64,000 nt of DNA from an uncultured Acidobacteriota bacterium (GTDB lineage: Bacteria > Actinomycetota > Acidimicrobiia > Spongiisociales > ZC4RG35). Made by a program: the position numbers and the translations under genes. A model generated the notes under the pieces. The model saw only the letters and a program-made list of their open reading frames with translations. It searched no databases and was not told the DNA's origin. Location of the stretch: assembly GCA_963720925.1 (NCBI GenBank), contig CAVRHE010000014.1, positions 214,575 through 278,574 on the forward strand, in the 5' to 3' direction. This document shows positions 1 through 20,763 of the stretch, piece after piece; the first letter of the stretch is position 1, and every line of letters starts with the position of its first letter.

Positions 1-2465
1 AGGAGGTCGTCGTCGCCGGCGAGACGAATCGCCTCCTCGACATGCTCCAGCGCCTCTTCGTGGTCCGGTGTTACTACCGCGAGGATGTTTCGTACCCGGG
101 ACATCTGAGCCGGGTCGTTCTCCTTCTCGGCGGCCTCCCTGGCTCTCTCGGCCATGGCCGCCGCCTTGGTCCCGTCCCCGGTTCGGTACCCGAGGAGCGC
201 CCAATCGGCGAGCACGGCTGCCGGGGCCGGATGGTTCGCGATTGAACGCTGGAAGTGCTCTTCGGCGTCGTCGAAACGGCCGAGCAAACGCTCGACCTCC
301 CCGGTCCGATGCTCGATGACACCGATCGATCCGGGGCCGGCGTGAGACGCGGCAATGGTCAACTCACGTCGGGCGCGGTCATATTCGCCGGCGGCCATGG
401 CGAGCTCGCCAAGGGCGAGGCGGGCTCCCTCGATGTCGGGGTCATCCAATGCAAGAGCCGTCTCGTAGAACTGGATCGCGGAGTCGTTGGCGAACACGGA
501 ACGCGCCAGATCGCCGGCCAGGTGGTACCACACTGTGGCTTCAGGGTCCCCTGCAGCCCGATACTGGCCGGCGACGGCGGCGGCGAGCCGGGCATCGGAT
601 CGGGCATATGGCCTCTCGGAAAGTGCCCGAGCGGCTCGGCGATGGAGCAGACGACGCCTGACCATCGAGGTCGTCTCGTAGGTGACTCGTTCGAGGGCAT
701 CGAGGGTGAAGCTGAGCCCGTCGGACTCGGGAATCTCTCGCAGCAGACCTGCGGCGACCAGTTCCTCGACCGCCTCCACCACCTCCTCTTCGCTTCGCCC
801 GCTCGTCTCCCGGAGGAGGTTTGCGTCACAGATGCCGTTGAGCGCGGCGGCGGCCGTGAGGATCTGCCGACTGAGGTCACCAATCTCCAGCAGCCGCGCC
901 TCCATGTATCGAGCCATGCCGGGGGTGGATGGAAGGCTGTCCCCGTCGGAGGTGAGTGCTTCGTTGACGAGCAGGGGGACACCCCCGGTCTTCTCCCGCA
1001 ATCGCCTCGCTGCGTTCTCGTCGCCTCCCAGGAGGGGGATCAGGTGCTGGACCGTGAGGGGCCGAATTGCGACCGATTGATCCGCCGCCGTCATCATCTC
1101 GGCCACTGCGGGGTGCAGCTCTTCCTCCGTCCTGGCTGCCACGACCATGACCATGGGCATCTCCGAGATGCGACGCGCCAAATACGAGAAGAGCGCAGCG
1201 GATGAAATGTCCATCCATTGCGCGTCGTCCAGGATGATCAAGATCGGTCGTTCCCGGGCCAGGATGGAAAGGACCGTGTGGATCCCCTCCAGCAGCCGCA
1301 GCTCGCCAAAGCGGTCAGGGGTCTCGTCCTTGGCAGGAGCGAATCCCGGCGCGAGCCTGCCAAGCTCGTTCATGGCCCATTCGGGGATCTCTGCCCGCAA
1401 CGCATCGACACGAGCGGTTGCACCGCCCAGAACCTGGGTGGCCACCCCATAAGGCAAGGACTGCTCGTTACGGAAAGCGCGGCCGATCAGGACATCGCGG
1501 TCCCCGTGCGCGAACGAGGCCACCTCTTCGAGAAGACGGGTCTTCCCCATCCAAGGGGCACCGGTCATCGCGACGACCACACCGCTTCGGGCCATGCTGC
1601 TCCGCAACGCCTCCTGGAGCTGCTCGAGCTCGGACTCACGATCGATGAGGTCGGGGTGGGTCTGACGTCGAGCCGGGATCTCTGCCTTGACCCTTCGCGG
1701 GGCACCCGGGGCAGGAGGGAGGTCTTCATCGAGGATGGCCTCGTAGAGCTCGGTCGTTTCCTCGAGTGGAGCCACGCCGAGCTCCTGATCGAGGACGGTC
1801 ACACAGTTGCGATACGCCTCGATCGCGCCGGGCCGGTCACCGGCCCAGGCGTGGAGAAGCATGAGGAATCGGTGCGCCGGTTCGTGCAACGCGTCGAGCT
1901 CGATCCATTGGGTGACCGCGTTGATGGCGGCGGGGTACTCGCCCGCGGCGGCCAAGGCGGTCCCCAACCGATGGAAGGCCTCGCCGATTCGGATCCTCGT
2001 CGACTCGGCGACGCTTCTCACCCAGTCATCGAATTCCGGTGAGGCCTTGACGGAGAAGCCTTCGAGGAAATCGCCCCGGTAGAGATCGGTGGCTCGCTGC
2101 AGATGAGGGATGCATCGGTCGCAGACATCGCGCCGGTCGTGGCCGTGCTCACTCGTCGCGTCCAGCTCGCGGCCAAGAGTGTCCAAATCCGAAATGACCT
2201 CGCCCACGAGGGTCACGAGATTTCGGTCGGCCTCGATGAGGTCGGTTCCGGTTGCCCCTCTAAGGGCTGACAGAGTCCGACGCAGAGTGGCCCGTGCCCG
2301 CTCCTGTGCTGCGTCGGCCCAGAACAGGCCGGCCAGGGTGTCTCGGCTGGCCGATTTCTCGACAACGAGGAAGGCGAGAAGAGCGATCGCCTTGCGGGTA
2401 TCGACCACGACCGGACGTCCGGAGATGGACACGTCGGGTTGGCCAAGAAGTTTGATATCGAGCAT
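1..2465 (-). CDS. SARP/AfsR-type regulator (DNA-binding + BTAD N-terminus, central AAA/NB-ARC ATPase, TPR-like C-terminus); the 3' end runs off the window
   Basis: The reverse frame is open from the window edge to ATG at 2465-2463. It is absent from the ORF track because no stop lies in the window. My translation begins MLDIKLLGQPDVSISGRPVVVDTRKAIALLAFLVVE...LYRGDFLEGF...WIELDALHEPAHRFLMLLHAWAGDRPGAIEAYRNCVTVLDQELGVAPLEET (BTAD-like). It continues with GAPWMGKT (Walker A-like) and ILDDAQWMD (Walker B-like), then TPR-like repeats. The + strand ORFs 255-1205 and 1218-2042 are its antisense shadows. Confidence 0.8.
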   Translation of the reverse strand, partial: MLDIKLLGQPDVSISGRPVVVDTRKAIALLAFLVVEKSASRDTLAGLFWADAAQERARATLRRTLSALRGATGTDLIEADRNLVTLVGEVISDLDTLGRELDATSEHGHDRRDVCDRCIPHLQRATDLYRGDFLEGFSVKASPEFDDWVRSVAESTRIRIGEAFHRLGTALAAAGEYPAAINAVTQWIELDALHEPAHRFLMLLHAWAGDRPGAIEAYRNCVTVLDQELGVAPLEETTELYEAILDEDLPPAPGAPRRVKAEIPARRQTHPDLIDRESELEQLQEALRSSMARSGVVVAMTGAPWMGKTRLLEEVASFAHGDRDVLIGRAFRNEQSLPYGVATQVLGGATARVDALRAEIPEWAMNELGRLAPGFAPAKDETPDRFGELRLLEGIHTVLSILARERPILIILDDAQWMDISSAALFSYLARRISEMPMVMVVAARTEEELHPAVAEMMTAADQSVAIRPLTVQHLIPLLGGDENAARRLREKTGGVPLLVNEALTSDGDSLPSTPGMARYMEARLLEIGDLSRQILTAAAALNGICDANLLRETSGRSEEEVVEAVEELVAAGLLREIPESDGLSFTLDALERVTYETTSMVRRRLLHRRAARALSERPYARSDARLAAAVAGQYRAAGDPEATVWYHLAGDLARSVFANDSAIQFYETALALDDPDIEGARLALGELAMAAGEYDRARRELTIAASHAGPGSIGVIEHRTGEVERLLGRFDDAEEHFQRSIANHPAPAAVLADWALLGYRTGDGTKAAAMAERAREAAEKENDPAQMSRVRNILAVVTPDHEEALEHVEEAIRLAGDDDL

Positions 2466-2571
2466 GGAGGAGAACCTGAGTGGTGCGGTGCCGAAACGCT
2501 AATTCCACCGTTACGGCTATGAGAAGTTCGTCTCGCCTCGGAACGGTAAGGCCTGTTCCGCATCGGAGGCG

Positions 2572-2599
2572 CGTTTCACTTACGTAACGCTTCACTACC
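2572..2599. promoter_or_regulatory. Imperfect direct repeat CG(T/C)TTCACT, two copies 16 nt apart, in the divergent SARP/array intergenic region
   Basis: cgtttcacttac (2572-2583) and cgcttcactacc (2588-2599) flank a TACGTA palindrome (2581-2586), about 15 nt upstream of ATG 2614. Any function is speculative. Confidence 0.2.
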
Positions 2600-2613
2600 A
2601 ATCTGTGCCCTGA

Positions 2614-3813
2614 TGAGGGAAGGTGAGGGAGCAACCGCTAACGCCGGCAACGCGGCCGTGCTCATTCTGGCGATCGTCAGCTCGTGGCATTGACTGGATT
2701 TGTAATGGGCGGGTTGGTGGGTTGGTGGGGGCCACTGGAGGCGGATTCGACACGCTGTCCTGAACCGGGGACGATGCTTTGTTCCTCGTGCTGGGTCTAT
2801 TGATCCTGTGGAAGGCCGCGGGCAACCGGATCGGTTGGATGTTCACCGCCATCGGGTTGATGTTCCTCGGTGCGGCGATCGCCGGCGGCATTGGCCGTTC
2901 GGGGATCGTCGCCTTTGCAGCGATTGGTGGTGCCCTCTGGCTCGGCTGGATCGTTCTGATGGGAACCCTGGTGTTGTGGTTCCCGACGGGCCAGGTCCCG
3001 AGCCGACGCTGGCTATGGCTGCAGTGGGTCGGCTTCGGTCTCCTGGCTGTGACCTTGTATCACCTACATCTTCACTGAGCAGGTCTGTGTCGATGGCTCG
3101 GATTCGGGTGGCTGTTTGGTCTGGGCCACCAACCCGATTGGCATCGGCGGGGTATCCCAACCCGGAATATGGGTGGTTGGCCGGGCCCATCTTCGCCTTC
3201 TACCCGATCTTCATGGGTGGAGCGGTCCTATCCCTGTTCATGCGGTACCGGAAAGCCGGGACCATCGAGCGACTCCAGTTGAAGTGGTTCCTGTTCGCCT
3301 GCGCCTCCTTCGTGCGGCCGCTTGGTACCGAGATCATCTTGGAGGCGTTGGAGTGGACAGCCGCCGTTCCTCGTCGACGCCTGGATCTCATTGTCCATCT
3401 TCGCCATCCCGATTGCCGCCACCCTGGCGATCCTCCGATACCGCCTCTATGACATTGATCGAATCATCTCGCGGACCGTTTCCTACGCCATAGTCATCGC
3501 CACCCTCGCCGCGGTCTACGCGCTGGGCCTGGCCGGGCTCACTTCCCTGCTCGACACCGAGTCCTCACTCGCCGTGGCCGCCGCCACGCTGGCCGTCGCC
3601 GCCTTGTTCAACCCATTGCGAAAACGCGTCCAGGGGTTCGTCGACCACCGCTTCAACCGCACCCGATACGACGCCGAGCGGGTGATGACCCAATTCACCG
3701 GGTCCCTCCGCGACGAGGTCGATCCAAACACCGTGCTCTCCGGCTGGGTGGGTGTCGTCTCCGAAACCATGAGACCGGTGGCTTCCGGCGTGTGGCTCAG
3801 GAGTGAGAGCTGA
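2614..3813 (+). pseudogene. Array paralog P1 of the polytopic membrane sensor-module family, disrupted by several frame changes
   Basis: Family motifs are spread over all three frames. Frame 1 (2779-3078) has LILWKAAGNRIGWMF. Frame 2 (~3060-3150) has VWATNPIGIGG. Frame 3 (~3155-3355) has FMRYRKAGTIERLQLKWFLFACASF. Frame 1 again (3322-3813) has ILRYRLYDIDRIISRTVSY...FNPLRKRVQGFVDHRFNRTRYDAERVM...GWVGVVSETMRPVASGVWLRSES. The N-terminus (ATG 2614, MREGEG...AVLILAIVSSWH) is also interrupted by stops. Confidence 0.6.
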
Positions 3814-3845
3814 GCACCCGCCAATCCCGTTTCACCGCCTGGCTG

Positions 3846-5006
3846 ATGTGGGTGTCGGGCTTGGCCATGATCGCCCTGGCTGCGGTTCTCAACGAGGTGA
3901 ACCCCCCACTGCCTGGCCAACCGCAGGAATCGACCGTCGAAGGGCTGATCTGGCTTTCGACCTGGATCGGCTTTGGCCTGGTCGGTGCCCTGGTCGTGTC
4001 GAGTCGTCCCGGGAATCGAATCGGGTGGCTGATGTGCGGGATCACGTTTGGCCTCGGCCTCGACATTTTCGCTGTCGAATACTCCCAATTCGCTCTCATC
4101 ACCCAACCGGGACGCTGGCCGTTCGGCGAGGCGGCGGCGTGGGTGGCGACATGGGGCTTTCTCCCAGTGGTGGCACTCGTAGTTGCTCTCGTCGTGATGT
4201 ATCCGTCAGGGACTCCGAGCCGACTTGGTCGCTGGGTCCTGCGGGGCTTTCTCTTCGTGATCTCGATCGAGGCGTTGGTGTATGCGCTTCGTCCCGGCCC
4301 CGTACAAGGGGGCGCTCCGCCAGACAACCCACTCGGCATTTCAGGCATTCGTCCCCTCCTGGACCCGGCTACCGAATGGCTGGGCACGCTTCTCGCGACG
4401 ATCGCCATCATCGCTGCCGTCGACGCGGTCCTGCGATTCCGCCGGTCCTCCGGTGTCGAGCGGCTCCAATTCCGCTGGTTCGTCTTCGCCATCGTGTCTT
4501 TCCCGATCATGTTCCTAGCCGGGAACTTCCTCGAATCGATAGTCGGAATCGAAACATTCGACCCTGTCGTGGTGATATTTGCCGTCTGGGGTAATGGCAC
4601 CGCGGTGGCCATCGGAGTCGCAATCACCCGCCACGGCCTCTACGAGATCGATCGTGTGATCTCCCGCACTGTGGGCTACGTCTTGGTCGTCGGCGTGGTG
4701 GCGGCCGCATACCTGGCGGCTGTGACCGGGCTGACCTCGATCCTGCCCGACCAGTCCCAGCTGGCGGTGGCCGGTTCCACACTCGCCGCCGCGGCGCTGT
4801 TCAATCCGGTGCGGAAGCGGGTGCAGGGCATGGTGGACCGGCGCTTCAATCGTTCCCGTTACGACGCCCAACGGGTCATGGACCGATTTGCCGGATCGCT
4901 GCGCGACCAGGTCGACAGTGGGGAGGTACTCGACGGCTGGGTGGGTGTGGTGGCCGAGACGATGCAGCCTGCGTCGGTGTCGGTCTGGGTCAGAGAGCCG
5001 GCGTGA
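3846..5006 (+). CDS. Array paralog P2: polytopic membrane protein with the conserved C-terminal RYRLYEIDR / FNRSRYDA / VWVRE module
   Basis: Intact 386-aa ORF with about 8-10 hydrophobic segments. Family motifs present: RPGNRIGWLM, RFRRSSGVERLQFRWFVF, TRHGLYEIDRVISRTVGY, FNPVRKRVQGMVDRRFNRSRYDAQRVMDRFAGSLRDQVD, GWVGVVAETMQPASVSVWVREPA. The TGA stop overlaps the GTG start of P3. Confidence 0.85.
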   Translation: MWVSGLAMIALAAVLNEVNPPLPGQPQESTVEGLIWLSTWIGFGLVGALVVSSRPGNRIGWLMCGITFGLGLDIFAVEYSQFALITQPGRWPFGEAAAWVATWGFLPVVALVVALVVMYPSGTPSRLGRWVLRGFLFVISIEALVYALRPGPVQGGAPPDNPLGISGIRPLLDPATEWLGTLLATIAIIAAVDAVLRFRRSSGVERLQFRWFVFAIVSFPIMFLAGNFLESIVGIETFDPVVVIFAVWGNGTAVAIGVAITRHGLYEIDRVISRTVGYVLVVGVVAAAYLAAVTGLTSILPDQSQLAVAGSTLAAAALFNPVRKRVQGMVDRRFNRSRYDAQRVMDRFAGSLRDQVDSGEVLDGWVGVVAETMQPASVSVWVREPA

Positions 5007-6130
5007 GAAAGGCTTGGCTCACGTTGGCCCTGATCGGGGCCACGGGCGGCATCCTCGCCGGGGCTCTGGGGCCCGCATTGGCGGAAGGAGACCGCCTATG
5101 GCCGATCGCTTGGATCCTCTGGGCGCCGGTTGGGTACTTGATACTGCTCAAGCGGCCCGGAAACGGGGTAGGCGCGGCGGCCCTCTTGACCGGTCTCATG
5201 TGGGGAGCCGGCTTCGTCATGCTCACCCTCAGTGTCATCGTTCCGAGCGAGTCGGCCGCCGCCTGGCTCGAACTGGGGGACAGCACTCTCGGCGGGCTGC
5301 CCTGGCTGGTGATGGTGTGGCTGTTGCTCGTCTTCCCTTCCGGGGCCTATGAGGGTAAGGCCGAGCGCGTCATCGGCTGGTTCGTCATCGGGTTCGCGAC
5401 CCTTGCCTCCGCCGCATTCGCGCTCGATCCTGCCCCAATGGAGGACTCGGGCTTGCCCAGCCCACTATCGGTCCCAGAGCTGGGGAATATCACCTCGGTG
5501 ATCACGAGTGATGGAGGGTTCGTCATGGTTGCCGCCTTCATCCTCGCGGCCGTCGTGATGGTGGTCTTCCGATGGCGGCGGAGCGCCGGCGTGGAACGAC
5601 TCCAGTACCGGTGGCTCTTCATGGGCGTGTTCTCGTTCTTCCTCATCATTGCCGCGGGCAGCCTCGGGCTCATCCCCGAGGACGGCTTGACCGAGTGGTT
5701 GTGGTTGCTGGCCGGAGGCGCCATCCCGACCGCCATCGGCATCGCGGTGCTCCGCTACCGCCTTTACGAGATCGACCGTCTGATCTCCCGGACGGTGACA
5801 TATCTATTGGTGGTTGGTGTGCTGGCGGCGGTGTTCTTTGGGGTCGTGACCGCGGCTAGTTCGCTCCTCGACACGGAAAGCGACCTGGCGATCGCCGCTT
5901 CCACCCTGGCCGTGGCTGCCATGTTCAACCCGGTGAGGAAGCGGGTGCAGACGTGGGTGGACCGGCGGTTCAATCGATCCCGCTACGACGCCCAACTTGT
6001 CGTGGACGAGTTCGCCGGGTCCCTCCGCGACCGGGTCGACAGCGACGAGGTGGTCGACGGATGGGTCGGGGTTGTCGCCGAGACCATGCAGCCCGCTGCG
6101 GCCGGTGTGTGGGTGCGGGAGTCACGATGA
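5003..6130 (+). CDS. Array paralog P3 of the membrane sensor-module family
   Basis: Intact 375-aa ORF with the same motif set (RPGNGVG, RWRRSAGVERLQYRWLF, LRYRLYEIDRLISRTVTY, FNPVRKRVQTWVDRRFNRSRYDAQLVV, GWVGVVAETMQPAAAGVWVRESR). GTGA overlap with P2 and ATGA overlap with P4. Confidence 0.85.
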   Translation: MRKAWLTLALIGATGGILAGALGPALAEGDRLWPIAWILWAPVGYLILLKRPGNGVGAAALLTGLMWGAGFVMLTLSVIVPSESAAAWLELGDSTLGGLPWLVMVWLLLVFPSGAYEGKAERVIGWFVIGFATLASAAFALDPAPMEDSGLPSPLSVPELGNITSVITSDGGFVMVAAFILAAVVMVVFRWRRSAGVERLQYRWLFMGVFSFFLIIAAGSLGLIPEDGLTEWLWLLAGGAIPTAIGIAVLRYRLYEIDRLISRTVTYLLVVGVLAAVFFGVVTAASSLLDTESDLAIAASTLAVAAMFNPVRKRVQTWVDRRFNRSRYDAQLVVDEFAGSLRDRVDSDEVVDGWVGVVAETMQPAAAGVWVRESR

Positions 6131-7168
6131 AGGCCAAACTCGTCGCGACCCTGCCTTGGGCGCTCTTGATCGTGGGCATCGTCGCCTGGGGGATGGCAAT
6201 TTGGTTCGATCGCGGCTCGGACGAAGTGACCGGGCCTCTCGACAAGCTATGGGCCCTGTCCTTCTTCGCCTTCCCGATCGTTGGCGTGTTCCTTGCCCGG
6301 CGGATCCCGGCGAATGCGGTGGGCTGGCTCTTCATAATCGGCCCGTTGCTGGTGGGAGCGGGAGTCGCCCTCCAGGAGATGTCCGAGGCCCTCGGCTTCC
6401 CGGGCTTGGTCTCCCCGTCCGAGTATGTCTTCGATGCGGGCTTGCTTGCCCTGTTCTCGTCATTGACCCTTTTCCCCGACGGGCGCTACCGACGGGCGTG
6501 GTGGGCGTGGGCTCATGCCGTCGCCATCCTGGTCCTGAGCATGGTGGCGGGCAGCTTCATTGCAGTGGTCCTGGTTCTGGGTCTCCTGCCACTCGTGTAT
6601 CGGTCGATCAAGGGCTCCTCGTTGGTTCGCCGTCAGATCGCCGGACCGCTCGTGGTCCTGATCCTCGGTGTGGTATCGCTGGTAGCCGTCAACGTTGTGT
6701 TCGGCGGCACGGCTCTCGCCCAAACCTCGATCACGGCGATAACGATGCTGATCACTATCGGTGTACCGGTGTCGATCGCCATTGCGATCACCCGGTACCG
6801 GCTCTACGAGATCGACCGGCTCGTTTCCCGGACCGTCAGCTATTTGTTGGTGGTCGTGTCTGTTGGGGGCGGTCTTCGTCGGTGTCGTGACATTGGCGGG
6901 CTCGCTGCTGCAGACTGATAGCGATCTGGCGATTGCCGCGTCAACTCTCGCGGTCGCAGCACTGTTCAACCCCGTTCGCAAGAGAATCCAGAACGGGGTC
7001 GACCGTCGATTCAATCGATCCCGCTACGACGCCCAGAAGGTGATGGACTACTTCTCCGGCTCGCTGCGGGACCAGGTGGACCCGGTCGGTGTCATCGAGG
7101 GCTGGGTGGGAGTTGTCTCCAACACCATGCAGCCCGCTTCCGCCGGAGTCTGGGTGAGGGAGCGATGA
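6127..7168 (+). pseudogene. Array paralog P4 of the membrane sensor-module family, with one frameshift near 6855-6862
   Basis: ATG 6127 (MKAKLVATLPWALLIVG...) reads in frame 1 to ...ITRYRLYEIDRLVSRTVSYLLVV. The conserved continuation LLGAVFVGVVTLAGSLLQTDSDLAIAASTLAVAALFNPVRKRIQNGVDRRFNRSRYDAQKVM...VWVRER is in frame 2 (ORF 6761-7168). The internal ERLQ.KW motif is degenerate (YRSIKGSSLVRRQIAG). Confidence 0.75.
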
Positions 7169-8316
7169 GAAAGATGTCACCACTCAGGGCAGTGATTGTC
7201 GTGTGGACCCTTCTGATGGTTGGCGCGGCAATCGCTTGGCTGACGTTCCCGGGTGTTGTCGACCCAATGATCGGGATCCTCTTCGCCTCGGTTTGCTCGG
7301 TAGTGGTAGGGGGGATACTCACCGTGAGAGTGCCGGGCAACCTGGTCGGTCCCCTCTCGCTGATCGCCGGCTCGGCATGGGTGCTCTACCTGTTCGGGAG
7401 GGGGTACGCGACGCTCTCTCTCGCATCGAGCGATCCCCTGCCGCTGGCATATTTCCTGGGCTGGCTCGGATCGTGGTCCGGCGCGTTGTTCCTCCTCGGG
7501 GTCTCGGCGCTGATCCTCTGTTTTCCCACCGGGAAGCCGGTCGGATGGTGGCGAGTGATCGCGCTTGGACCAATTGTGGGTGCGGTGTCGACCCTGATCG
7601 GGGCCGTCCTCCTCTGGGGGCTTCCACTGGAGACCCTCATCGAAGACGAACTAGTCAGCCAGACCCCGTGGTATCCCCTGGTCGACGCCGGTTTCGTCCT
7701 CGGATTCGTTTCCGTCCTCCCAGCGACGTTGTCGGTCGTGGCTCGATTTCGCAAAGCCGGGTTGGTCGAGCGGCAGCAGATCAAGTGGCTGCTGGCGGCA
7801 ACCAGCATCCTCGCTGTGGCCTACCTGGTCGGAGCGATCACGGACGATTCCAGCGAGGCGGCCTGGTGGGCCGTGTCCCTAGGTGTGGCGGCGATCCCGA
7901 TCTCGATCCTTTTTGCCGTTCTGCGCTACCGCCTCTACGACATCGATCGGATCCTTTCTCGAACCGTTTCCTACGTAATCGTGATCGGCTTGCTCGGGGC
8001 TGTTTATGCGTTGGGCTTGACCGCATTGACCTCGGTTCTCGATGCGGAATCACCATTGGCCGTGGCCGCTTCTACTCTTGCCGCTGCCGCCCTCTTCAAT
8101 CCTCTGCGAAGAAGGGTCCAGGCAGTGGTGGATAGACGATTCAACCGATCGCGCTACGACGCGGAACAGGTGATGGATCAATTCTCCGGCTCCTTGCGCC
8201 AGGACCTCGACCCGGACACGGTGGTCGAGGGCTGGATGGGAGTGGTGTCCGAGACGATGCACCCGACATCGATTTCGGTATGGGTTCGTAACGATTTCGG
8301 GACGGTCGAGAGATAG
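7165..8316 (+). CDS. Array paralog P5 of the membrane sensor-module family, immediately upstream of the phosphatase gene
   Basis: Intact 383-aa ORF with motifs RVPGNLVGPL, RFRKAGLVERQQIKWLL, LRYRLYDIDRILSRTVSY, FNPLRRRVQAVVDRRFNRSRYDAEQVM, GWMGVVSETMHPTSISVWVRNDFGTVER. ATGA overlap with P4. TAG stop at 8314-8316, only 10 nt before ATG 8327 of the next gene, which is in another frame. Confidence 0.85.
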   Translation: MRKMSPLRAVIVVWTLLMVGAAIAWLTFPGVVDPMIGILFASVCSVVVGGILTVRVPGNLVGPLSLIAGSAWVLYLFGRGYATLSLASSDPLPLAYFLGWLGSWSGALFLLGVSALILCFPTGKPVGWWRVIALGPIVGAVSTLIGAVLLWGLPLETLIEDELVSQTPWYPLVDAGFVLGFVSVLPATLSVVARFRKAGLVERQQIKWLLAATSILAVAYLVGAITDDSSEAAWWAVSLGVAAIPISILFAVLRYRLYDIDRILSRTVSYVIVIGLLGAVYALGLTALTSVLDAESPLAVAASTLAAAALFNPLRRRVQAVVDRRFNRSRYDAEQVMDQFSGSLRQDLDPDTVVEGWMGVVSETMHPTSISVWVRNDFGTVER

Positions 8317-8326
8317 AAATGGGGCC

Positions 8327-9916
8327 ATGGTTCAGCTGATGAGACGGCGCAGAGCCGACGAAGAAACGCCAGAGGGCGACGAAACCCCGATCCCGGAGTC
8401 GAAGACCCGGTTGATCGAAGCCATCCCGATCCCGATTGGGGATCCGTTGGAGACTCTTCTCCTTTCGTCGGGTGGGCCCGTTGTGTTGCGTGACCTCGAA
8501 CTGGAGTCGGAGACCGTGGACATCCTCCGGGAAGCCGGCGTCGAGCTCATCGTGCCGCTGATCGGCCAGGGCGAGCTCCTCGGTGCCCTCTACCTCGGCC
8601 CCCGGCTCTCCGATCAGCCCTATTCGACCGATGATCGGAGACTTCTCGGCAGCCTCGCCTCCCAGGTGGCGCCGGCGATGAAGGTTGCCCAACTCGTCCG
8701 CGAGCAGCAGGTCGAGGCGAAGGAGCGGGAACGCATCCATCAGGAGCTCCAGGTCGCGGCCCTCATCCAACAGACCCTCCTCCCGAAGGAGCTGCCTGCG
8801 ATCGCCGGCTGGCAGGTCGACGCCTTTTACCGGCCGGCACGGGCGGTTGGTGGCGACTTCTACGACTTCATCGCTCTCGACGATGGTCGGCTCGGCGTGG
8901 TCATCGGCGACGTAACCGACAAGGGCGTGCCTGCCGCATTGGTCATGGCGACCTGCAGATCCATGCTGCGCGCTGCAGCCCAACGTCACAGCTCTCCATC
9001 GGCGGTCCTGGCCGATGTCAACGATGGCCTGGTGCCGGAGATCCCACCGGCCATGTTCGTGACCTGTCTCTACGCCATCATCGATACCGATGCCGGGGAG
9101 GTGGTGTTCGCCAACGCCGGCCACAACCTTCCCTATGTGAGGCACGATGGCGGTGTCCTCGAGCTGAGGGCCACCGGCATGCCCCTCGGGCTGATGCCGG
9201 GGATGGGTTACGACGAGACCAGGTACGAGATGTCCGCGGGCGAGGTGATGGTCCTGACCAGTGACGGGATCACAGAGGCTCACAACGCCGAAGGTGAGAT
9301 GTACGGGTTTTCCCGTCTGATGGACCGAGTCGCCCGGAGGCCGATCAACGACGACGTCCTCAACGCCGTGGTCACCGAACTGGAGGCGTTTACCGGTGAG
9401 GGCGCCGAGCAGGAGGACGACATCACGCTCGTCGTCGTCAAGCGGACAGCTTCGGCTCAGGCCTCAGCAGAGACATTCGAGGAGCGACGCCAGATCATGG
9501 CCAAGTTCGCGATACCCAGCGAGGAAGGCAACGAGCGCATCGCCATCGCCAAGGTATCGGCCGCCGTCGAGGAGCTCGGTCTCGAGCCGGCACGGCTGGA
9601 GCGGCTGAAGACTGCCGTGGGCGAGACCGTGATGAACGCCATCGAGCACGGCAACGAGAATCGTGCCGAGCTCGACGTAGACGTCCAGGTTTGTGCCAAC
9701 GAGCAATCGGTCAGTGTTCTGGTCAGCGATCAGGGTGGCGACCGGTTGATCCCGGAGGCGACTGTGCCCGACCTCGAGGCCAAGCTCGCCGGAGAGCAAA
9801 CCCCTCGCGGCTGGGGCCTTTTCCTGATCGAGAAGATGGTCGACGAGGTGCGCTCGACCAGTGACGGTGCAACACACACGATTGAACTCGTGATGAACCG
9901 GAGAGGAGTTTCCTGA
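8327..9916 (+). CDS. Partner-switching enzyme: partial GAF-like N-terminus + PP2C/SpoIIE-type Ser phosphatase + C-terminal RsbW/SpoIIAB-like HATPase (Ser kinase) domain
   Basis: 529-aa ORF. The N-terminus is IPIPIGDPLETLLLSSGGPVVLRDLELESETVDILREAGVELIVPLIGQGELLGALYLGPRLSDQPYSTDDRRLLGSLASQVAPAMKVAQL (GAF C-terminal-half-like). PP2C motifs: AVGGDFYDF, GDVTDKGVPAAL, LTSDGITEA, EDDITLVVV. HATPase motifs: ETVMNAIEHGN (N box), SDQGGD (G1), RGWGLFLI (G2). Confidence 0.85.
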   Translation: MVQLMRRRRADEETPEGDETPIPESKTRLIEAIPIPIGDPLETLLLSSGGPVVLRDLELESETVDILREAGVELIVPLIGQGELLGALYLGPRLSDQPYSTDDRRLLGSLASQVAPAMKVAQLVREQQVEAKERERIHQELQVAALIQQTLLPKELPAIAGWQVDAFYRPARAVGGDFYDFIALDDGRLGVVIGDVTDKGVPAALVMATCRSMLRAAAQRHSSPSAVLADVNDGLVPEIPPAMFVTCLYAIIDTDAGEVVFANAGHNLPYVRHDGGVLELRATGMPLGLMPGMGYDETRYEMSAGEVMVLTSDGITEAHNAEGEMYGFSRLMDRVARRPINDDVLNAVVTELEAFTGEGAEQEDDITLVVVKRTASAQASAETFEERRQIMAKFAIPSEEGNERIAIAKVSAAVEELGLEPARLERLKTAVGETVMNAIEHGNENRAELDVDVQVCANEQSVSVLVSDQGGDRLIPEATVPDLEAKLAGEQTPRGWGLFLIEKMVDEVRSTSDGATHTIELVMNRRGVS

Positions 9917-10257
9917 TGGAGAGCGTGTTCGAGGCAACGGTGACCAGGACCGATGATGGATCCGTCGTGGTCATGAGCGGGACCGTGAACCGGGCAGCCA
10001 AGCAGGCACTGGAAGCCGCCTACGAGGAGGCGGTGGAACAGCCGGGCCGGGTTCTGATGGACTTCCAGTCCGTGGACTACATCAACTCCACTGGAATAGC
10101 GGTCATCGTGGGCGTACTGGCGATGGCCCGGGCGGAGGACCGTGAGGTGGGGGCCTTCGGTTTGACCGACCACTACCGGGAGGTGTTCAGCATCACCCGT
10201 CTGTCCGATTTCATGACCATTTACGACGATGAGACGGCTGCAGTCGCGGCCGGATGA
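9916..10257 (+). CDS. STAS-domain anti-sigma-factor antagonist-like protein (RsbV/SpoIIAA family), copy 1
   Basis: 113 aa. The start overlaps the phosphatase stop (TGATG). It has STAS hallmarks: VLMDFQSVDYINSTGIAVIVG, with a Ser at the position corresponding to the phosphorylatable Ser of SpoIIAA, and ...FGLTDHYREVFSITRLSDFMTIYDDE. Confidence 0.8.
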   Translation: MESVFEATVTRTDDGSVVVMSGTVNRAAKQALEAAYEEAVEQPGRVLMDFQSVDYINSTGIAVIVGVLAMARAEDREVGAFGLTDHYREVFSITRLSDFMTIYDDETAAVAAG

Positions 10258-10270
10258 GGAGAGGAGCATC

Positions 10271-10621
10271 ATGCCGACAGCCAATGTGACGATGAGCGTG
10301 CGGGAGGCCGCGCCCCGGGTACGGGTCATCGACATCGAAGGGGAGATCACTGGGTTTTCCGAGAAGGAGATCAACGCCGCTCATGAGGAAGCGGCCGAGG
10401 GCGGCGTCGACGCTGTCGTCCTCAATTTCGAGGGTCTCGAGTACATGAACAGTGGCGGGATCGGGCTCCTGGTCACCACCCTGATCAGGGCTCAGCGCAG
10501 TGGCCACCGTCTCATGGCCTACGGCCTGACTGACCACTACTGCCAGATCTTCTCGCTGACCCGTCTCGACGAGGCCATCGAGATCTTCGACGACGAGCCG
10601 GCGGCGCTCGCGGCCGTGTGA
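10271..10621 (+). CDS. STAS-domain anti-sigma-factor antagonist-like protein, copy 2
   Basis: ATG 10271 is preceded by GGAGGAGAGGAG. The sequence is MPTANVTMSVRE...VVLNFEGLEYMNSGGIGLLVTTLIRAQRSGHRLMAYGLTDHYCQIFSLTRLDEAIEIFDDE, paralogous to copy 1. Confidence 0.8.
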   Translation: MPTANVTMSVREAAPRVRVIDIEGEITGFSEKEINAAHEEAAEGGVDAVVLNFEGLEYMNSGGIGLLVTTLIRAQRSGHRLMAYGLTDHYCQIFSLTRLDEAIEIFDDEPAALAAV

Positions 10622-10640
10622 GACGATTCTTTGAACGGAA

Positions 10641-11852
10641 TTGAGCCCGACCGGCGCAATTGAGTTCACAGAGCAGTCCGGCCGGAGAGCGTTGGGCCGT
10701 TGGGTCCTGCTTGGGCTCCTCGTTGTGGCCGGGGTTGGGCTTTCCGTCGTTCAGCTGACACTGTCAGAGCGTCCCCTCGCGGACGCCTCCCTCGCCTCGG
10801 TCGGATTCCTGATCTACGCCGGAATCGGCGGTCTGATCGTCATACGTCGCAACGGTCATCCCACCGGCTGGCTGTTGATCTTGATCGGTTTGGCGGTGTT
10901 GTGGGCCGACGCGTTCGTTGGGCTTCCGGGAGTCTCCCCGCTGTTCGCCGCTTGGGTGTCGAGTTGGGGCTGGGGTCTGGTGTTCTGCTTGTTCGCGCTT
11001 CTGACGTTGACCTTTCCCTCGGGGCATCTGCCGGCGGGCAAAGGTCCGTGGTCCAGGGCAGGACGTGCCGCCGTATGGGTGCTTCCGATTCTCCTGGTGG
11101 CCACTGCCCTGACCGAGACGTTGAGCGGTGCCGAATCCTCGACCTCGACAGTCAACCCGATCGGGTTTCTCCCCGAGTGGCTCGGTTCTGTCGCTCTTCT
11201 TGGCATCGTGGCCATCCTGCTTGGCGGCGCGGTATCGCTCGTGATCAAGAGGCGCCGAGCAGTCGGCGCAGAGCGGGCCCAGTACACGTGGGTGGTATTT
11301 GCATTCGTGCTGTTGACCACCGCCGTAGTCCTCACGTTCCTCTTTGTCTTCATCTCGATCGGTATCGGCGCAGGTGATCCCGGCGATGACGCCTGGGGGC
11401 CGGCGTACGTGATGATGATCCTGTTTCCACTCTCTTTTGGCGTGGCAGTCCTCCGGTACCGGCTCTACGAGATCGACCGGATCGTGTCCCGGACGGTTTC
11501 TTATGCGCTGGTGGTCGGATTGCTGGCGGGAGCGTTCCTGAGTGTCGTCGCGTTGATGTCGTCTCTGCTGCCAACCGAGTCATCGGACCTGGCGGTGGCC
11601 AGCTCGACGCTGGTCGCGGCTGCCCTTTTCAACCCGCTGCGAAGAAAGGTCCAGGGTGGGGTGGACCGCCGGTTCAATCGCCAGCGCTATGACGCCCAGC
11701 GGGTCATGGACGGCTTCGCCTATTCCCTCCGGGACCGCGTCGACCCCGAAGAGGTGATGACCGGCTGGGTCGATGTAGTTTCGTCGACGATGCAGCCCGA
11801 CTCCATTGGCATGTGGGTGCGAGATGACGACGAAGCAGCCGGTGCTGTCTAG
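10641..11852 (+). CDS. Paralog P6 of the membrane sensor-module family, downstream of the STAS genes
   Basis: 403-aa ORF with a TTG start 19 nt after STAS-2; the exact start is uncertain. Motifs: RRNGHPTGWLL, KRRRAVGAERAQYTWVVF, LRYRLYEIDRIVSRTVSY, FNPLRRKVQGGVDRRFNRQRYDAQRVMDGFAYSLRDRVD, GWVDVVSSTMQPDSIGMWVRDDDEAAGAV. Confidence 0.8.
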   Translation: MSPTGAIEFTEQSGRRALGRWVLLGLLVVAGVGLSVVQLTLSERPLADASLASVGFLIYAGIGGLIVIRRNGHPTGWLLILIGLAVLWADAFVGLPGVSPLFAAWVSSWGWGLVFCLFALLTLTFPSGHLPAGKGPWSRAGRAAVWVLPILLVATALTETLSGAESSTSTVNPIGFLPEWLGSVALLGIVAILLGGAVSLVIKRRRAVGAERAQYTWVVFAFVLLTTAVVLTFLFVFISIGIGAGDPGDDAWGPAYVMMILFPLSFGVAVLRYRLYEIDRIVSRTVSYALVVGLLAGAFLSVVALMSSLLPTESSDLAVASSTLVAAALFNPLRRKVQGGVDRRFNRQRYDAQRVMDGFAYSLRDRVDPEEVMTGWVDVVSSTMQPDSIGMWVRDDDEAAGAV

Positions 11853-13244
11853 CCCTTGAGGGCGGCCCGTGCGGCGTAGTAGCCGCACATCCCGTGCACC
11901 CCTGCCCCGGGTGGGGTGGCCGATGAGCACAGGAAGAGACCCTCGCCGATGCGGTACGGGGCGGTCGCGCCGAGCTGGAAGACCTTTTTCACCCCGAATC
12001 CGCCACCGGCGATGTCGCCCCTGATGTAGTTGGGGTTGTGCGCCTCGAACTGGCCGGCGTTCATGGTGTGCCGCTCGAGGATCAGGTCCCTGAATCCGGG
12101 CGCGAAACGCTCAATCTGTGACTCGATCGCCTCAGTCATGTCGACATCCGAGCCCGATGGGACGTGGCAGTAACCCCAGGCGGTGTGTTTCCCTTCCGGC
12201 GCCCGGGTGGGGTCGAATCTCGACTGCTGCGCGACGAGGACCAAGGGGCGTTCCGGATGCTGCCCGGCGTGGACCTGGTCCTCGGCTTCGGCGACCTGCT
12301 CCCAGGTCCCGCCGACATGGACCGTCCCGGCCTGAGGGCTCCATTCGTCTGCCCATGGGATCGGGCCATCCAGGGCCCAGTCGACCTTGAACACCGCCGG
12401 GCCGACCTTCCACCCCGTCAGCCGGCGCCGGTCGCGAGGACTGACCCGGTTGCCGCCGATTCGAACTGCGGCCCGCGGCATCACGTCCAGCACGACCCCG
12501 CGGTTGGTGGGAAGCTCGTCGAGCGAGCCGATCATGCGTCCGGTCTCGATGCTGCCTCCGCCGTCGACGATGATCTTGGCCAAGGCCTCGGCGATGCGTT
12601 GTGATCCTCCTCGGACCATCGGCCAGCCATACGCATGCGCGGCGACTCCGAAGAGCAACGCCACCCCACCCGTGAGCGGAGAGCTGAACGGGGCGATGGC
12701 GTGGGCGGCCAGACCGGCGAGAACACCGCGTGCCTCCTCCGAGGAGAATCCCGAGGCGATGATCGAAGCCGGTAGGGCCCCCCGAGCTGGCAAGCTTGAC
12801 GAAGCTCCCCGGATTGTCGGGGACCAGCGTCATGGGCCCCAGGAAGTCCTCCATCACCGCATCTGCCGCCTCGACGAGTGGCCCGAAGATTCTGGTGTAG
12901 TGGCGGGCGTCAGGCCCAAAACGATCAGCAGTGGCCTGGACGTCCCTGAGAATGGCACCGGCGCGGCCACCGTCGAGCGGATGGGCGAGGGGGATGGTGG
13001 GATGGACCCACTCCACCTCGAGGCCGAGGTCACGGAAAAACGGCGAGGCGACACCCAGGGGATGGATCGCCGAGCAGATGTCGTGTGCGAACCCGGGAAG
13101 AGTGAGCTCTTCGGTCCGGGTCCCACCACCGATCTCGTCGGCCTGCTCCACGACGAGCACCCGTCGCCCGCGTCTGGAAAGCTCCGCCGCGGCAGAGAGG
13201 CCGTTGGGGCCGGAGCCGACCACAACTACGTCGTATTCGACCAT
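11849..13244 (-). pseudogene. FAD-dependent oxidoreductase of the phytoene-desaturase (CrtI-like) family, with one frameshift near 12778-12795
   Basis: The N-terminal piece is MVEYDVVVVGSGPNGLSAAAELSRRGRRVLVVEQADEIGGGTRT (Rossmann GxGxxG), readable to ...PGSFVKLA. The continuation (L)PARGALPASIIASGFSSEEARGVLAGLAAHAI...GLFLCSSATPPGAGVHGMCGYYAARAALKG is ORF 11849-12793. The frame change coincides with a C6 homopolymer (12778-12783). Confidence 0.75.
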
Positions 13245-18185: not shown

Positions 18186-20763
18186 ATGCAGTTGTTGGAG
18201 CGCGACGACATCCTCCAGCGTTTGGAGAAGCTCCTCGCCGCCGCCAGGGGTGGCGACGGACGGGCAGTCTTGGTGCGCGGCGAGGCGGGCATCGGCAAGA
18301 CGTCGGCGGTCCGCGCCTTCACCGACTCCCATTTGGAGGATGCGTTGGTTCTGTGGGGTGGCTGTGACGACCTTCTCACTGCGCGGCCGCTGGGACCCAT
18401 CTGGGATATGGCCCTGGACGAGCCTGCGTTGGGGGAGGCGCTCCGAGGTCAGGACCGCTACGAAGCGTTCGCCCTCGTCCTCGAGCTCATGTCACGGTCG
18501 TTGCGGCCCACCGTGGTCGTCATCGAGGACATCCATTGGGCCGACGAGGCCACTCTCGATCTGATCAAATTCCTCGGGAGACGAATCGCCCGGAGCCATG
18601 GCCTGCTGATCCTCACCTACCGAGATGGGCAGGTGCCAGGAGACCGTCCTCTGCGTGTGGCTCTGGCCGACATCGCCGCTTCGGTGCTGGAACGGATCAC
18701 CCTGACCCCACTCTCCCCGGAAGCCGTGTCCGAGCTGGCCTCTGAGGCAGGAGGCATCACCGAGGGGTTGTGGGAGCTGACCGGGGGCAACCCGTTCTTC
18801 CTGACTGAGGTCCTGGGCGCCGAGCACGAGTCGGTTCCGGGCTCGGTGCGCGACGCCGTGATGGGGAGAGTCTCTCGACTTTCTCCGCCTGCGCGGGCAC
18901 TGGTCGATCTGGTTTCGGTGGTGCCGGGCCGGGCGGAGCTGGAGCTTGTGGACCGCGTCCTCGGGCCCTCGGAGGAGGCGGCCAGTGAGGCTGAGGCGGC
19001 TGGGGTGATCGTGCTCACCGAGGACACGCTCACGTTCCGTCACGAACTCGCTCGCCGCTCGGTCGAGACGGATCTTCCCCAGATCAGGAGGCGGGAGATA
19101 AACCTCGAGGTGCTTCGAGCAGTCGAGGACCTCGGCTACGACGTGTCACGGGCCGCTCACCATGCCCGGGTGGGTGGTGATATCGATGCTCTGGTGCGTC
19201 TGGCTCCCCTTGCGGCCCGCCGCGCCGCGGCCATGGGAGAGCCACAACGAGGCAGTCGCTCACCTGCGGGCACTCGAGCCTCACCTCGACCGGCTGGAGC
19301 CCGAGCTGTGCGCCGACCACTACGACCTCTGGGCCTTTGAGGAATACCTGGGTAGCGAGATCGCTTGGGCCGAGGAGATCATCGAGATCGGGATCGGCCT
19401 CCGGCGAAGATTGAACGATCCGGAGAAGCTGGGACACTCGTTGTTGGTTGGGAGCCGAATCGCTTGGGTGCGGAATCGTCGCTCGCTTGCCACCGAGATG
19501 GCCAACGAGGCGGCGTCGGTCCTGGAGTCGGTCGGTGGACTCCCTCTGGCGACCGCTTACTCAGCGATCTCACAGCTGGCGATGCTCGCCGGCGACGAGA
19601 AGCGCACGCTCTGGTACGGGGAGAAGGCCCTGGCAGTGGCCGGCGAGGAGCCCAGCCAGGCCCGGGCCCACGCCCTCAACAACATCGGGACGGCCAAGAC
19701 CATCCCGCGGTACCCGGAAGGCATCGAGGAGCTGGAGGAGAGCTACGCCATGTCGGCCGACATCCATTCCAGCCACGACCAGATCCGGGCCGCGGTGAAC
19801 ATCAGTTGGGGCGCGATCTACCACCGGGATCTCGCCACTGCCGAGTTGTGGGCGGGTCGGGCCCATGAGCTCTCGTTGGATCGGGAGATCGCTTCGTTCG
19901 ATGCGTATGTGACCGGGGAGTTGGCCCTGATAGACGAGATGAGGGGAAACTGGGCGGAAGCCGAAGCGAAGGTCTGCTTCGTGCTCGACACCCTGGCCGA
20001 GCTTGGCACGGCGAACATCGTTGCCAGCACCTTGCTCGGTCGACTTCAGGCCCGCCGAGGCGAGCCGGATGCCAAGACCCACCTGATGGATGGGTGGGAA
20101 CGTTCTCTTCAGGCCAACGAGGTCCAGCGAACCACACCGGCAGCGATTTCACTGGCCGAGTATGTCTGGATCGGGGGCAAGCTCGATGAGGCGATCTTCC
20201 CCCAGATGCGGGAGATCTTGGCCGATTGCATCGACCGCGACTCTCCCTGGATGGCGGGAGAGCTTGCATTCTGGCTCCGTTTGATCGGCGAGCTCGAGCA
20301 CATGCCTGATATCGCCCCTGAGCCATATCGCCTGGCTGGGGAAGGGGATTGGGAGGCCGCCGCCGCATTCTGGGAAGAGCGCGGCATCCCCTATGACCGG
20401 GCGTTGGCATTGAGTCACGGAGACACCGATGCCAGGATCGAGGCGCTGAGGATCTTCGATGATCTCGGTGCGATCCCGGTGGCCGCCCGGCTGCGCTCGG
20501 AGTTGGCTGAGGCGGGGGTGAACCGTGTCCCCAGGGGACCCACCAGGGCCACGCGGGACAATCCCTTCGGCCTGACCGCTCGCCAGCTGGAGGTGCTACG
20601 CCATCTGTCGGACGGCATGACCAATGCCGAGATCGCCGACCGGCTCTTCGTTTCGAACCGAACGGTCGATCACCACGTCTCGGCAATCCTCGGCAAGCTG
20701 GGCGCCAACAGCCGGTCCGACGCCGCGTCGATGGCACGTGAAGCCGGATTGCTCGATAGGTGA
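18186..20763 (+). pseudogene. Large ATPase/LuxR-family regulator (AAA ATPase + TPR-like repeats + C-terminal LuxR HTH), with one frameshift near 19240-19248
   Basis: ORF 18186-19340 has GEAGIGKTS (Walker A) and VVIEDIHWAD (Walker B), readable to ...LAARRAAAMG. The continuation (E)SHNEAVAHLRALEPHLDRL... is ORF 19162-20763, ending LTARQLEVLRHLSDGMTNAEIADRLFVSNRTVDHHVSAILGKLG (LuxR HTH). Confidence 0.8.

Follow-up and report, generated by a model that had tools for sequence, protein, structure and literature searches.

We analyzed a stretch of 64,000 nucleotides (nt) from an uncultured bacterium (contig CAVRHE010000014.1 of assembly GCA_963720925.1, positions 214,575 to 278,574; hereafter the window), in which six paralogous genes of membrane proteins, P1 to P6, surround the gene of a single soluble phosphatase/kinase and the genes of two STAS proteins. 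All nine genes lie on the forward strand. P1 (about 2614..3813) is a decayed copy spread over several reading frames, in which the hidden Markov model (HMM) of the family matches positions 233-371 only. It is followed by P2 (3846..5006, 386 amino acids (aa), about ten transmembrane (TM) helices), P3 (5003..6130, 375 aa), P4 (6127..7168), which carries a single 1-nt insertion near 6857, and P5 (7165..8316, 383 aa), situated directly upstream of the enzyme gene (8327..9916, 529 aa). STAS1 (9916..10257) and STAS2 (10229..10621) come next, and P6 (10641..11852, 403 aa) lies downstream of them; P2, P3, P5 and P6 are intact. A tblastn search with the C-terminal 133 aa of P5 returns exactly six copies in the window, all at this locus (E 1e-39 to 1e-86), which bears out the six paralogs described in an initial annotation made from the sequence alone. 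The gene junctions from P2 to P6 measure -4, -4, -4, +10, -1, -29 (or +13) and +19 nt, and the true start of STAS2 is likely M15 at position 10271, as in the related locus L001, where the orthologue begins MPTANVT. No gap between 3846 and 11852 exceeds the final +19 nt, within the limit of 20 nt stated in the annotation, and the genes are packed as an operon. A promoter and terminator scan of positions 1800-12600 found nothing exceeding the shuffled expectation, so it is gene spacing that argues for co-transcription.

The intact paralogs share 24-30% identity over their N-terminal ~235 aa, compared with 59-69% in the segment from the RYRLY motif to TM10 and 59-81% in the cytoplasmic tail. The contrast of a divergent N-terminus and a conserved C-terminus had been described before, and the motifs quoted in that description are present. 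Hydropathy and the positive-inside rule predict about ten TM helices with both termini in the cytoplasm; the predicted cytoplasmic face holds the motifs RPGNxxGW, RFRRxGxERxQ and LRYRLYEIDRxISR, and the predicted cytoplasmic tail measures 64-70 aa. Scans of these proteins against Pfam, NCBIfam and PADLOC gave no significant family and only a weak resemblance to PrsK, from which the idea of a split GAF domain arose. A defence system was rejected on the PADLOC result. None of the window paralogs matches HisKA_7TM (PF16927) at E <= 0.1; several of their database homologues carry precomputed PF16927 matches, and the one given with a strength mark is weak. Over 6000 clusters of database homologues were found for P3. 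Nearly all of the best 120 are stand-alone proteins of ~370 aa; the few with a source name go under 'hypothetical protein', and those that are named derive from metagenome-assembled genomes of Acidimicrobiia. Paralogs within one genome are 40-54% identical, and close relatives keep the positional orthology of individual copies (for P6 in L001, L012, L013 and L016); the copies are therefore old and maintained. A strongly negative AT skew (-0.2 to -0.33) coincides exactly with the genes of the membrane proteins (2500-8000 and 10500-12000); the skew goes back to about 0 or to positive values over the enzyme and STAS genes, which we read as a putative effect of T-rich codons of hydrophobic residues.

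The enzyme starts with a basic helix (MVQLMRRRR) and an acidic linker, followed by the remnant of a GAF domain (about 8411-8677), a long linker helix (about 8627-8779), a PP2C/SpoIIE phosphatase domain (8879-9445; PF07228, E 2.8e-52, profile positions 1-191 of 192) and an RsbW-like kinase domain (9524-9889; PF13581 HATPase_c_2, E 1e-18, with sub-threshold matches to the SpoIIAB and RsbW models of NCBIfam). The kinase motifs appear in the sequence as NAIEHGN, DQGGD and GWGLFLI. In Foldseek searches with the full model of P5 joined to the enzyme (see below), the best PDB match is 3KE6, the RsbU and RsbW domains of Rv1364c (E 4e-17); the phosphatase matches Rv1364c, RssB, SiaA and SpoIIE, and the kinase matches RsbW in 6M37. 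STAS1, of the anti-sigma-antagonist type (Pfam STAS, E 1.4e-10), can be aligned with the STAS protein 4HYL and, via its D-S-x-G motif, with TM1442 (1SBO); STAS2 (Pfam STAS, E 3.6e-12) can be aligned with TM1442 and with RsbV of B. subtilis. Both proteins conserve the serine of the D/N-S-x-G motif (DYINSTG in STAS1 and EYMNSGG in STAS2), which lines up with that of TM1442 and RsbV. On this evidence, the two catalytic domains and the two STAS proteins all look functional. Three components of partner switching are present: a PP2C phosphatase, a GHKL serine kinase of the RsbW/SpoIIAB kind, and STAS proteins with a phosphorylatable serine. The earlier identification of one PP2C/RsbW-like enzyme with two STAS proteins thus stands on matches to the Pfam families SpoIIE, HATPase_c_2 and STAS.

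No single polypeptide of the window carries a complete GAF domain. The enzyme matches the corresponding profiles partially (Pfam GAF 43-132 of 133, GAF_2 63-135 and GAF_3 43-127 only), the missing elements being GAF helix 1 and strand 1. The ~28 residues at its N-terminus are charged, and the reading frame offers no earlier start. The tails of the membrane proteins have no GAF match on their own, and their conserved segment SLRDxVD...GWVGVVxETMQPxxxxVWVR corresponds to GAF helix 1 and strand 1. This segment is found at positions 4896-4994 in P2, 6020-6118 in P3, 7061-7159 in P4 (in the second frame), 8191-8289 in P5 and 11724-11822 in P6. Every copy in the window stops 2-9 residues past strand 1, P5 doing so after 8 residues. 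The stop codon of P5 is TAG, and the ATG of the enzyme follows 10 nt later in another frame. We refer to the membrane proteins as sensor halves, and to an enzyme with a GAF domain cut at this place as split-type.

When 1.84 billion database representatives were searched exhaustively with the enzyme, many longer proteins emerged; the 150 best representatives, examined with the family HMM built from homologues of the paralogs, reveal how the two pieces are joined elsewhere. Single chains comprising the membrane domain of the half family, a full GAF domain and PP2C, with or without the kinase, make up 87 of these 150. In such fused chains the family HMM matches up to position 365-371 of its 372, leaving a gap of a few residues to the start of the homology to the enzyme; in P0156, for example, the two matches occupy positions 26-395 and from 405 onwards. 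A member of the P0156 cluster is named 'GAF domain-containing SpoIIE family protein phosphatase [Actinomycetota]'. The fused chains match the whole Pfam GAF profile (P0156 371-491 to profile positions 3-133, P0177 391-525 to 1-133, P0125 461-586 to 1-130), and therefore the first ~25 GAF positions belong to the region that is homologous to the halves. At the junction the fused chains read ...T.QP....SLWL, then a short loop, then I.I...DPL...L.L.SPA...GV.L.VPL.SQGEL.G.L.LG.R.S.Q.Y..DDR.LL.; the first part of this stretch closes P5 and the second part opens the enzyme. A tblastn search of plasmids with the tail module gave a single match, to a Deinococcus GAF-HisKA_3 histidine kinase, in which the order is again colinear: P5 39-377 aligns to residues 66-418 (E 4e-29) and enzyme 74-134 to residues 435-494 (E 4e-7). 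The annotation had described the RYRLYDIDR-type module as the membrane-proximal part of actinobacterial sensor kinases and phosphatases, and the Deinococcus kinase together with the 87 fused chains bears out that RYRLY(D/E)ID belongs to the membrane part of one-chain kinases and phosphatases. By the evidence of sequence, the paralogs arose through a gene fission, as its N-terminal product, and are not a free-standing family. It remains true that they have no output domain of their own, as had been noted, but they are not the bare sensor modules they were taken for, each of them ending with GAF helix 1 and strand 1.

To place the locus among its relatives, we scanned genomes (one per species) with an alignment of the enzyme and obtained 80 loci, 42 of which span at least 18 kb. 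Between one and ten halves are found within 10 kb of a split-type enzyme at 37 of these 42. The fused form occurs at none of the 80 surveyed loci. The layout of a BTAD regulator, one to ten halves, the enzyme and two consecutive STAS genes recurs in Actinomycetota and Chloroflexota, in clades including Acidimicrobiia, Thermoleophilia, Solirubrobacterales, Nocardioidaceae, Kribbella, Chloroflexia, Anaerolineales and Ktedonobacterales. In the cultured Kribbella orskensis (L093), a BTAD-AAA_16-TPR gene on the reverse strand is followed by halves of 403, 389, 396 and 401 aa, an enzyme of 544 aa and two STAS genes, with overlapping stops and starts. To the annotation, the arrangement was not known to have been described. 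Our literature searches turned up neither the array nor a natural split GAF domain, which is not proof that a description does not exist; the arrangement is not, however, peculiar to the window, being widespread in two phyla.

The number of halves varies between loci. The window has five upstream of the enzyme and one downstream, L001 has six upstream, one downstream and one further downstream, L012 has six to seven upstream and one downstream, L016 and L022 each have eight upstream and two downstream, and L004 has fewer. The window is without one to three internal copies of its relatives and without their far-downstream copy. This extra half lies ~4 kb downstream of the P6 position (L001:19273-20451, L013, and L016 at 16.3-17.5 kb), and the corresponding segment is absent from the window at ~14056.

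Split enzymes share a further element at their N-terminus. By eye, a short motif of basic amphipathic character opens 39 of 43, and a linker of variable sequence comes after it; in the window the motif falls within 8327-8400, residues 1-25 of the enzyme. Examples are MVQLMRRRR, MTALTRSFRRRLLRRR and MATLLQSMKRIWPxRK, and the pattern can be written as M-x2-4-[LI]-x2-3-[FLM]-RRR (loci L016-L092). Fused homologues have a short loop and no basic helix at the same place. The helix may be a tether, to the membrane or to a half, and may have arisen after the fission.

Two of the six halves in the window are disrupted. P1 has about a dozen indels relative to an intact 399-aa orthologue (L001:6501-7700), and the density of alignment gaps is far higher in the P1 region (37 gaps in 2.1 kb) than across the rest of the locus (7 in 5.8 kb), so P1 is a real pseudogene. 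Its last 163 codons (3322-3813, with a TTG start) are still one open frame that covers TM9-TM10 and the GAF helix/strand tail; if expressed, this remnant would be a minimal donor or a competitor. The decay of P1 had been recognized in the initial annotation, which overlooked the 1-nt frameshift that breaks P4 as well, evident from the intact 347-aa orthologue L001:11125-12168. The adjacent gene of a flavin adenine dinucleotide (FAD)-dependent oxidoreductase (11849..13244, reverse strand) is covered by two tblastn high-scoring segment pairs (HSPs) in different frames, equivalent to one frameshift near 12800, and fragmented copies also occur in several close relatives that are metagenome bins with the label MFD. 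For these two reasons, the single frameshifts in P4 and the oxidoreductase gene may be sequencing errors. Gene calls of 805 aa (L011:7587-10004) and 629 aa (L004:11591-13480) inside the arrays of relatives may represent either a head-to-tail fusion of two halves or frameshifted copies whose genes were called wrongly.

The compatibility of the two pieces was examined with chimeras. The P5 tail joined to the enzyme matches Pfam GAF over profile positions 3-132 with 38.3 bits, against 35.6 for the enzyme alone and 34.8 with a shuffled tail, and GAF_3 over positions 2-127 with 31.6 bits, against 26.5 and 27.6. P6 joined to the N-terminus of the enzyme matches the PrsK profile TIGR02916 as one stretch (positions 4-472, E 1e-8), the separate parts reaching 0.005 and 0.004; the scores of P6 (15.5 bits) and of the chimera (34 bits) compare with a cut-off of 300, and there is no HisKA domain. 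We modelled a single-chain chimera of P5 and the enzyme with AlphaFold2, using an alignment of 59 fused homologues. The full chimera reaches a mean predicted local distance difference test score (pLDDT) of 86 and contains a linker helix of ~50 residues (chimera 484-534). A mini chimera (P5 318-383 and enzyme 1-140) has a pLDDT of 87 and a predicted template modelling score of 0.82, with the P5 helix (33-48) and strand (52-58) at pLDDT 92-94, the junction (61-90) at 54-66 and the rest at 96-97. According to DSSP, the P5 part of the mini chimera comprises one long strand and one isolated bridge residue beside it, and no other strand. Since strands in DSSP need bridge partners, the P5 strand must pair with strands of the enzyme. 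Foldseek returned 30 matches to the mini model at E <= 0.001, almost all of them GAF domains or GAF-containing sensor modules (Lcd1, KdpD, DosS, PDE2/5/6 and phytochromes), aligned over 176-217 columns with a query of 206 residues. As modelled, the pieces from P5 and the enzyme are compatible with one GAF fold; this shows compatibility, not assembly in trans.

The location of the cut suggests how the products of the fission might work together. The undivided sensor phosphatase/kinase of the partner-switching type, common in Actinomycetota and Chloroflexota, is a single chain composed of a ~10-TM sensor, a cytoplasmic helical linker, GAF, a long linker helix, PP2C and, in some cases, the kinase; in the window this chain is cut inside GAF. 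A half would donate GAF helix 1 and strand 1 to the incomplete GAF domain of the enzyme, in a form of donor-strand complementation, and the split-specific basic helix of the enzyme may assist as a tether. In the rebuilt membrane-bound sensor, the state of the TM region would be passed to GAF, from there to the linker helix and on to PP2C, probably through dimerization of the linker and the phosphatase. Linker-mediated control of dimers has been shown for RsbU and proposed for phosphatases of the RsbU type and for GAF-PPM proteins, in which the GAF domain acts through a coiled-coil linker on the PPM dimer (PMC12143880). The balance of the fused kinase and the phosphatase would then determine to what extent the two STAS proteins, as carriers of the output, are phosphorylated. 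The common tail and the divergent TM regions would allow several signals to enter one enzyme, alternatively or competitively. Both the multiplexed input and the hetero-oligomeric sensor complexes suggested in the annotation are putative. We regard it as marginally probable that alternative halves complete the GAF domain of the enzyme in trans and set the phosphorylation of the STAS proteins. The broader proposal is more tentative, somewhat short of probable: that the split GAF is a plug and socket connecting up to ten receptors per genome to one phosphatase/kinase, with the choice made by strand complementation.

Several findings weigh against completion of the GAF domain in trans. A split-type enzyme stands without a half within 10 kb at 5 of the 42 well-flanked loci (e.g. 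L038, L050 and L064), and the split enzyme of L007 likewise has no half nearby; such cases imply either partners encoded at other loci or a remnant that can work alone. The operon contains no sigma-factor gene or other evident target, and no sigma-factor gene is found in the conserved flanks. Only four of the six copies in the window are intact. The gain in Pfam score on joining the pieces is small, 3-5 bits. Strand pairing was deduced from the DSSP string, not from coordinates, and the model mainly reproduces the fused fold because it was built from a single-chain chimera with an alignment of fused homologues.

Some of the same findings would fit a common pathway in which the GAF domain is not completed. 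The halves could contact the enzyme in another way, for example through the basic helix on the conserved cytoplasmic loops, or could recruit it to the membrane or form hetero-oligomeric sensors, while the GAF remnant folds or dimerizes alone. The conserved operon and synteny argue for a common pathway and are equally satisfied here, the conserved basic N-terminal helix could be a real docking element, and both the enzymes without nearby halves and the small gain of the chimera are accommodated. What this explanation leaves unaccounted for is why the halves stop 2-9 residues past GAF strand 1, why the tail is their most conserved part, and why the enzyme lacks exactly those elements that are present in fused homologues. 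The GAF remnant, with one long hairpin and a few helices, is also unlikely as a stable domain. Under completion in trans, by contrast, the tail is expected to be the most conserved part of the paralogs because all of them must fit one partner. We consider the explanation without completion rather unlikely, although the likeliest of the alternatives.

The evidence for docking does not fix the sign of regulation, and it would serve equally well for halves acting as sequestering or decoy partners, with the enzyme inactive at the membrane (or the halves competing for it) until a signal releases it, as RsbR/RsbS hold RsbT. The many copies and their variation from 5 to 10 between close relatives would suit titration. 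In the one-chain relatives, however, the same elements are permanently joined, so that binding as such is not an off state there, and we see no positive evidence of release; sequestration seems to us quite improbable. Less probable still is that the halves are stand-alone membrane proteins with an unrelated function (e.g. transport or membrane homeostasis), left adjacent to the enzyme by fission and tandem duplication. Such a function would agree with the lack of a Pfam or NCBIfam family or a functional annotation for the halves, and with the few copies that lie apart from the enzyme, such as L001:19273-20451. It is difficult to reconcile with the strongest constraint falling on the tail, which matters only for GAF, with the tight and often overlapping junctions with the enzyme conserved across two phyla, and with the long retention of paralogs in positional orthology. 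An artefact of frameshift errors, of a mis-assembled or collapsed repeat, or of halves and enzyme joined by programmed frameshifting or read-through is effectively excluded, despite the frameshifts in P1, P4 and the oxidoreductase gene and the fragmented copies in some related metagenome assemblies: the split and the arrays recur in over 60 independent assemblies, among them isolate genomes of Kribbella in which the genes are intact, copies of 40-54% identity cannot collapse or expand in assembly, the separate stop and start of P5 and the enzyme lie in different frames with no fused locus in the survey, and no recoding could connect P6 or the upstream copies with the enzyme.

The genes flanking the array are conserved to a considerable extent. 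A BTAD-AAA_16-TPR regulator gene of the SARP/STAND-like kind (1..2495, reverse strand) is divergent from the array and runs off the start of the window. It is intact: in tblastn, residues 5-832 of its 923-aa orthologue from L001 match window positions 2483 to 3 in a single HSP at 85.5% identity. A divergent gene of this kind also neighbours the split systems of L001, L004, L007, L012 and the Kribbella locus L093, a range from Acidimicrobiia to Kribbella, and the regulator may be part of the output or control of the system. In relatives, beyond the BTAD gene (L001:1173-3052, reverse strand; also L004 and L012), a gene of a NarL-type response regulator stands beside that of a ~410-aa membrane protein with no Pfam match on record. 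This protein has HisKA_3-like (LHDSVLQTL) and ATP-lid motifs and is, on these motifs, probably an unannotated histidine kinase. In the window, positions 18192-18845 give a weak second match to the AAA/BTAD regulator (25% identity, E 2e-9), which suggests a further putative gene for a STAND-type regulator. The FAD-dependent oxidoreductase downstream of P6 matches Pfam NAD_binding_8/DAO/Amino_oxidase, and such a gene also adjoins the systems of L004, L007, L009 and L012. It comes after the STAS genes in both the fused-type L009 and the split-type L007; the shared STAS and oxidoreductase neighbours indicate that the fused system of L009 and the split loci are versions of the same system. L007 is a metagenomic contig whose enzyme resembles those of Chloroflexota and which has the BTAD neighbour.

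The closest known counterparts of the system are the one-chain GAF-SpoIIE phosphatases (P0156/HEX8929012.1, P0126 and P0125), which are homologous to it over the full length, have the same domain order and share with the halves the motifs RYRLY(D/E)ID and FxPLRxRxQxxxDRRFYRxxYDA. The system of the window differs from them in being cut past GAF strand 1, in having the sensor part in six genes (one to ten elsewhere) and in the added basic helix. Rv1364c of M. tuberculosis (PAS-RsbU-RsbW-RsbV, 3KE6) and the OsaC-type proteins of Streptomyces similarly combine PP2C and an RsbW-like kinase on one chain with STAS partners, but Rv1364c has a complete soluble PAS domain and a fused STAS domain, and no membrane sensor, split domain or sensor array. 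The RsbR paralogs of the Bacillus stressosome (RsbRA-RD and YtvA), which act through RsbT on RsbU, resemble the halves in having variable sensing parts, a conserved C-terminal docking part and one phosphatase. Unlike the halves, the RsbR proteins are soluble, dock via a complete STAS domain into the RsbR/RsbS complex and act via the separate kinase RsbT; the halves are membrane proteins, and their docking part would be a fragment of the GAF domain of the enzyme itself. A stressosome was rejected, as there is no RsbR, no separate kinase of the RsbT kind and no RsbS apart from the two STAS proteins, and the halves have no STAS domain. PrsK (TIGR02916) and other histidine kinases with a polytopic membrane domain and GAF, such as WP_015231682.1, the Deinococcus kinase (D. 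peraridilitoris) aligned with P5 above, as well as Pfam HisKA_7TM (PF16927), have the same type of membrane sensor followed by GAF. Unlike the window proteins, PrsK-type proteins are single chains with a histidine kinase output, and the window proteins and the chimera score 15-34 bits against the cut-off of 300 and have no PF16927 match. In chaperone-usher pili, a donor strand from another polypeptide completes an incomplete beta-sheet fold. The proteins are unrelated and serve fibre assembly, not signalling, so the resemblance is a mechanistic analogy limited to the proposed complementation step.

The PP2C, RsbW and STAS components, the GAF sensors with polytopic membrane domains and the multiplexing of sensor paralogs, as in the stressosome, are already known. 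The novelty lies in a fission that cuts through a domain, in arrays that amplify the donor half, and in the complementation mechanism that these imply. PP2C and partner-switching pathways run stress responses and development, and the entry of signals from the membrane into them is poorly understood. If the GAF domain is completed in trans, the system would be a natural case of intermolecular domain complementation used for signalling, in which many sensors are wired to one output without duplication of the enzyme. It would constitute a combinatorial receptor system without a described counterpart in bacterial signalling, and one that is widespread in Actinomycetota and Chloroflexota. A function can also be offered for a large set of 'hypothetical' membrane proteins, to which the clusters matched by P3 alone belong, and the locus illustrates that a gene fission through a domain can be kept for long. 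The cultured Kribbella allows direct testing, and the arrangement suggests a design for modular synthetic receptors.

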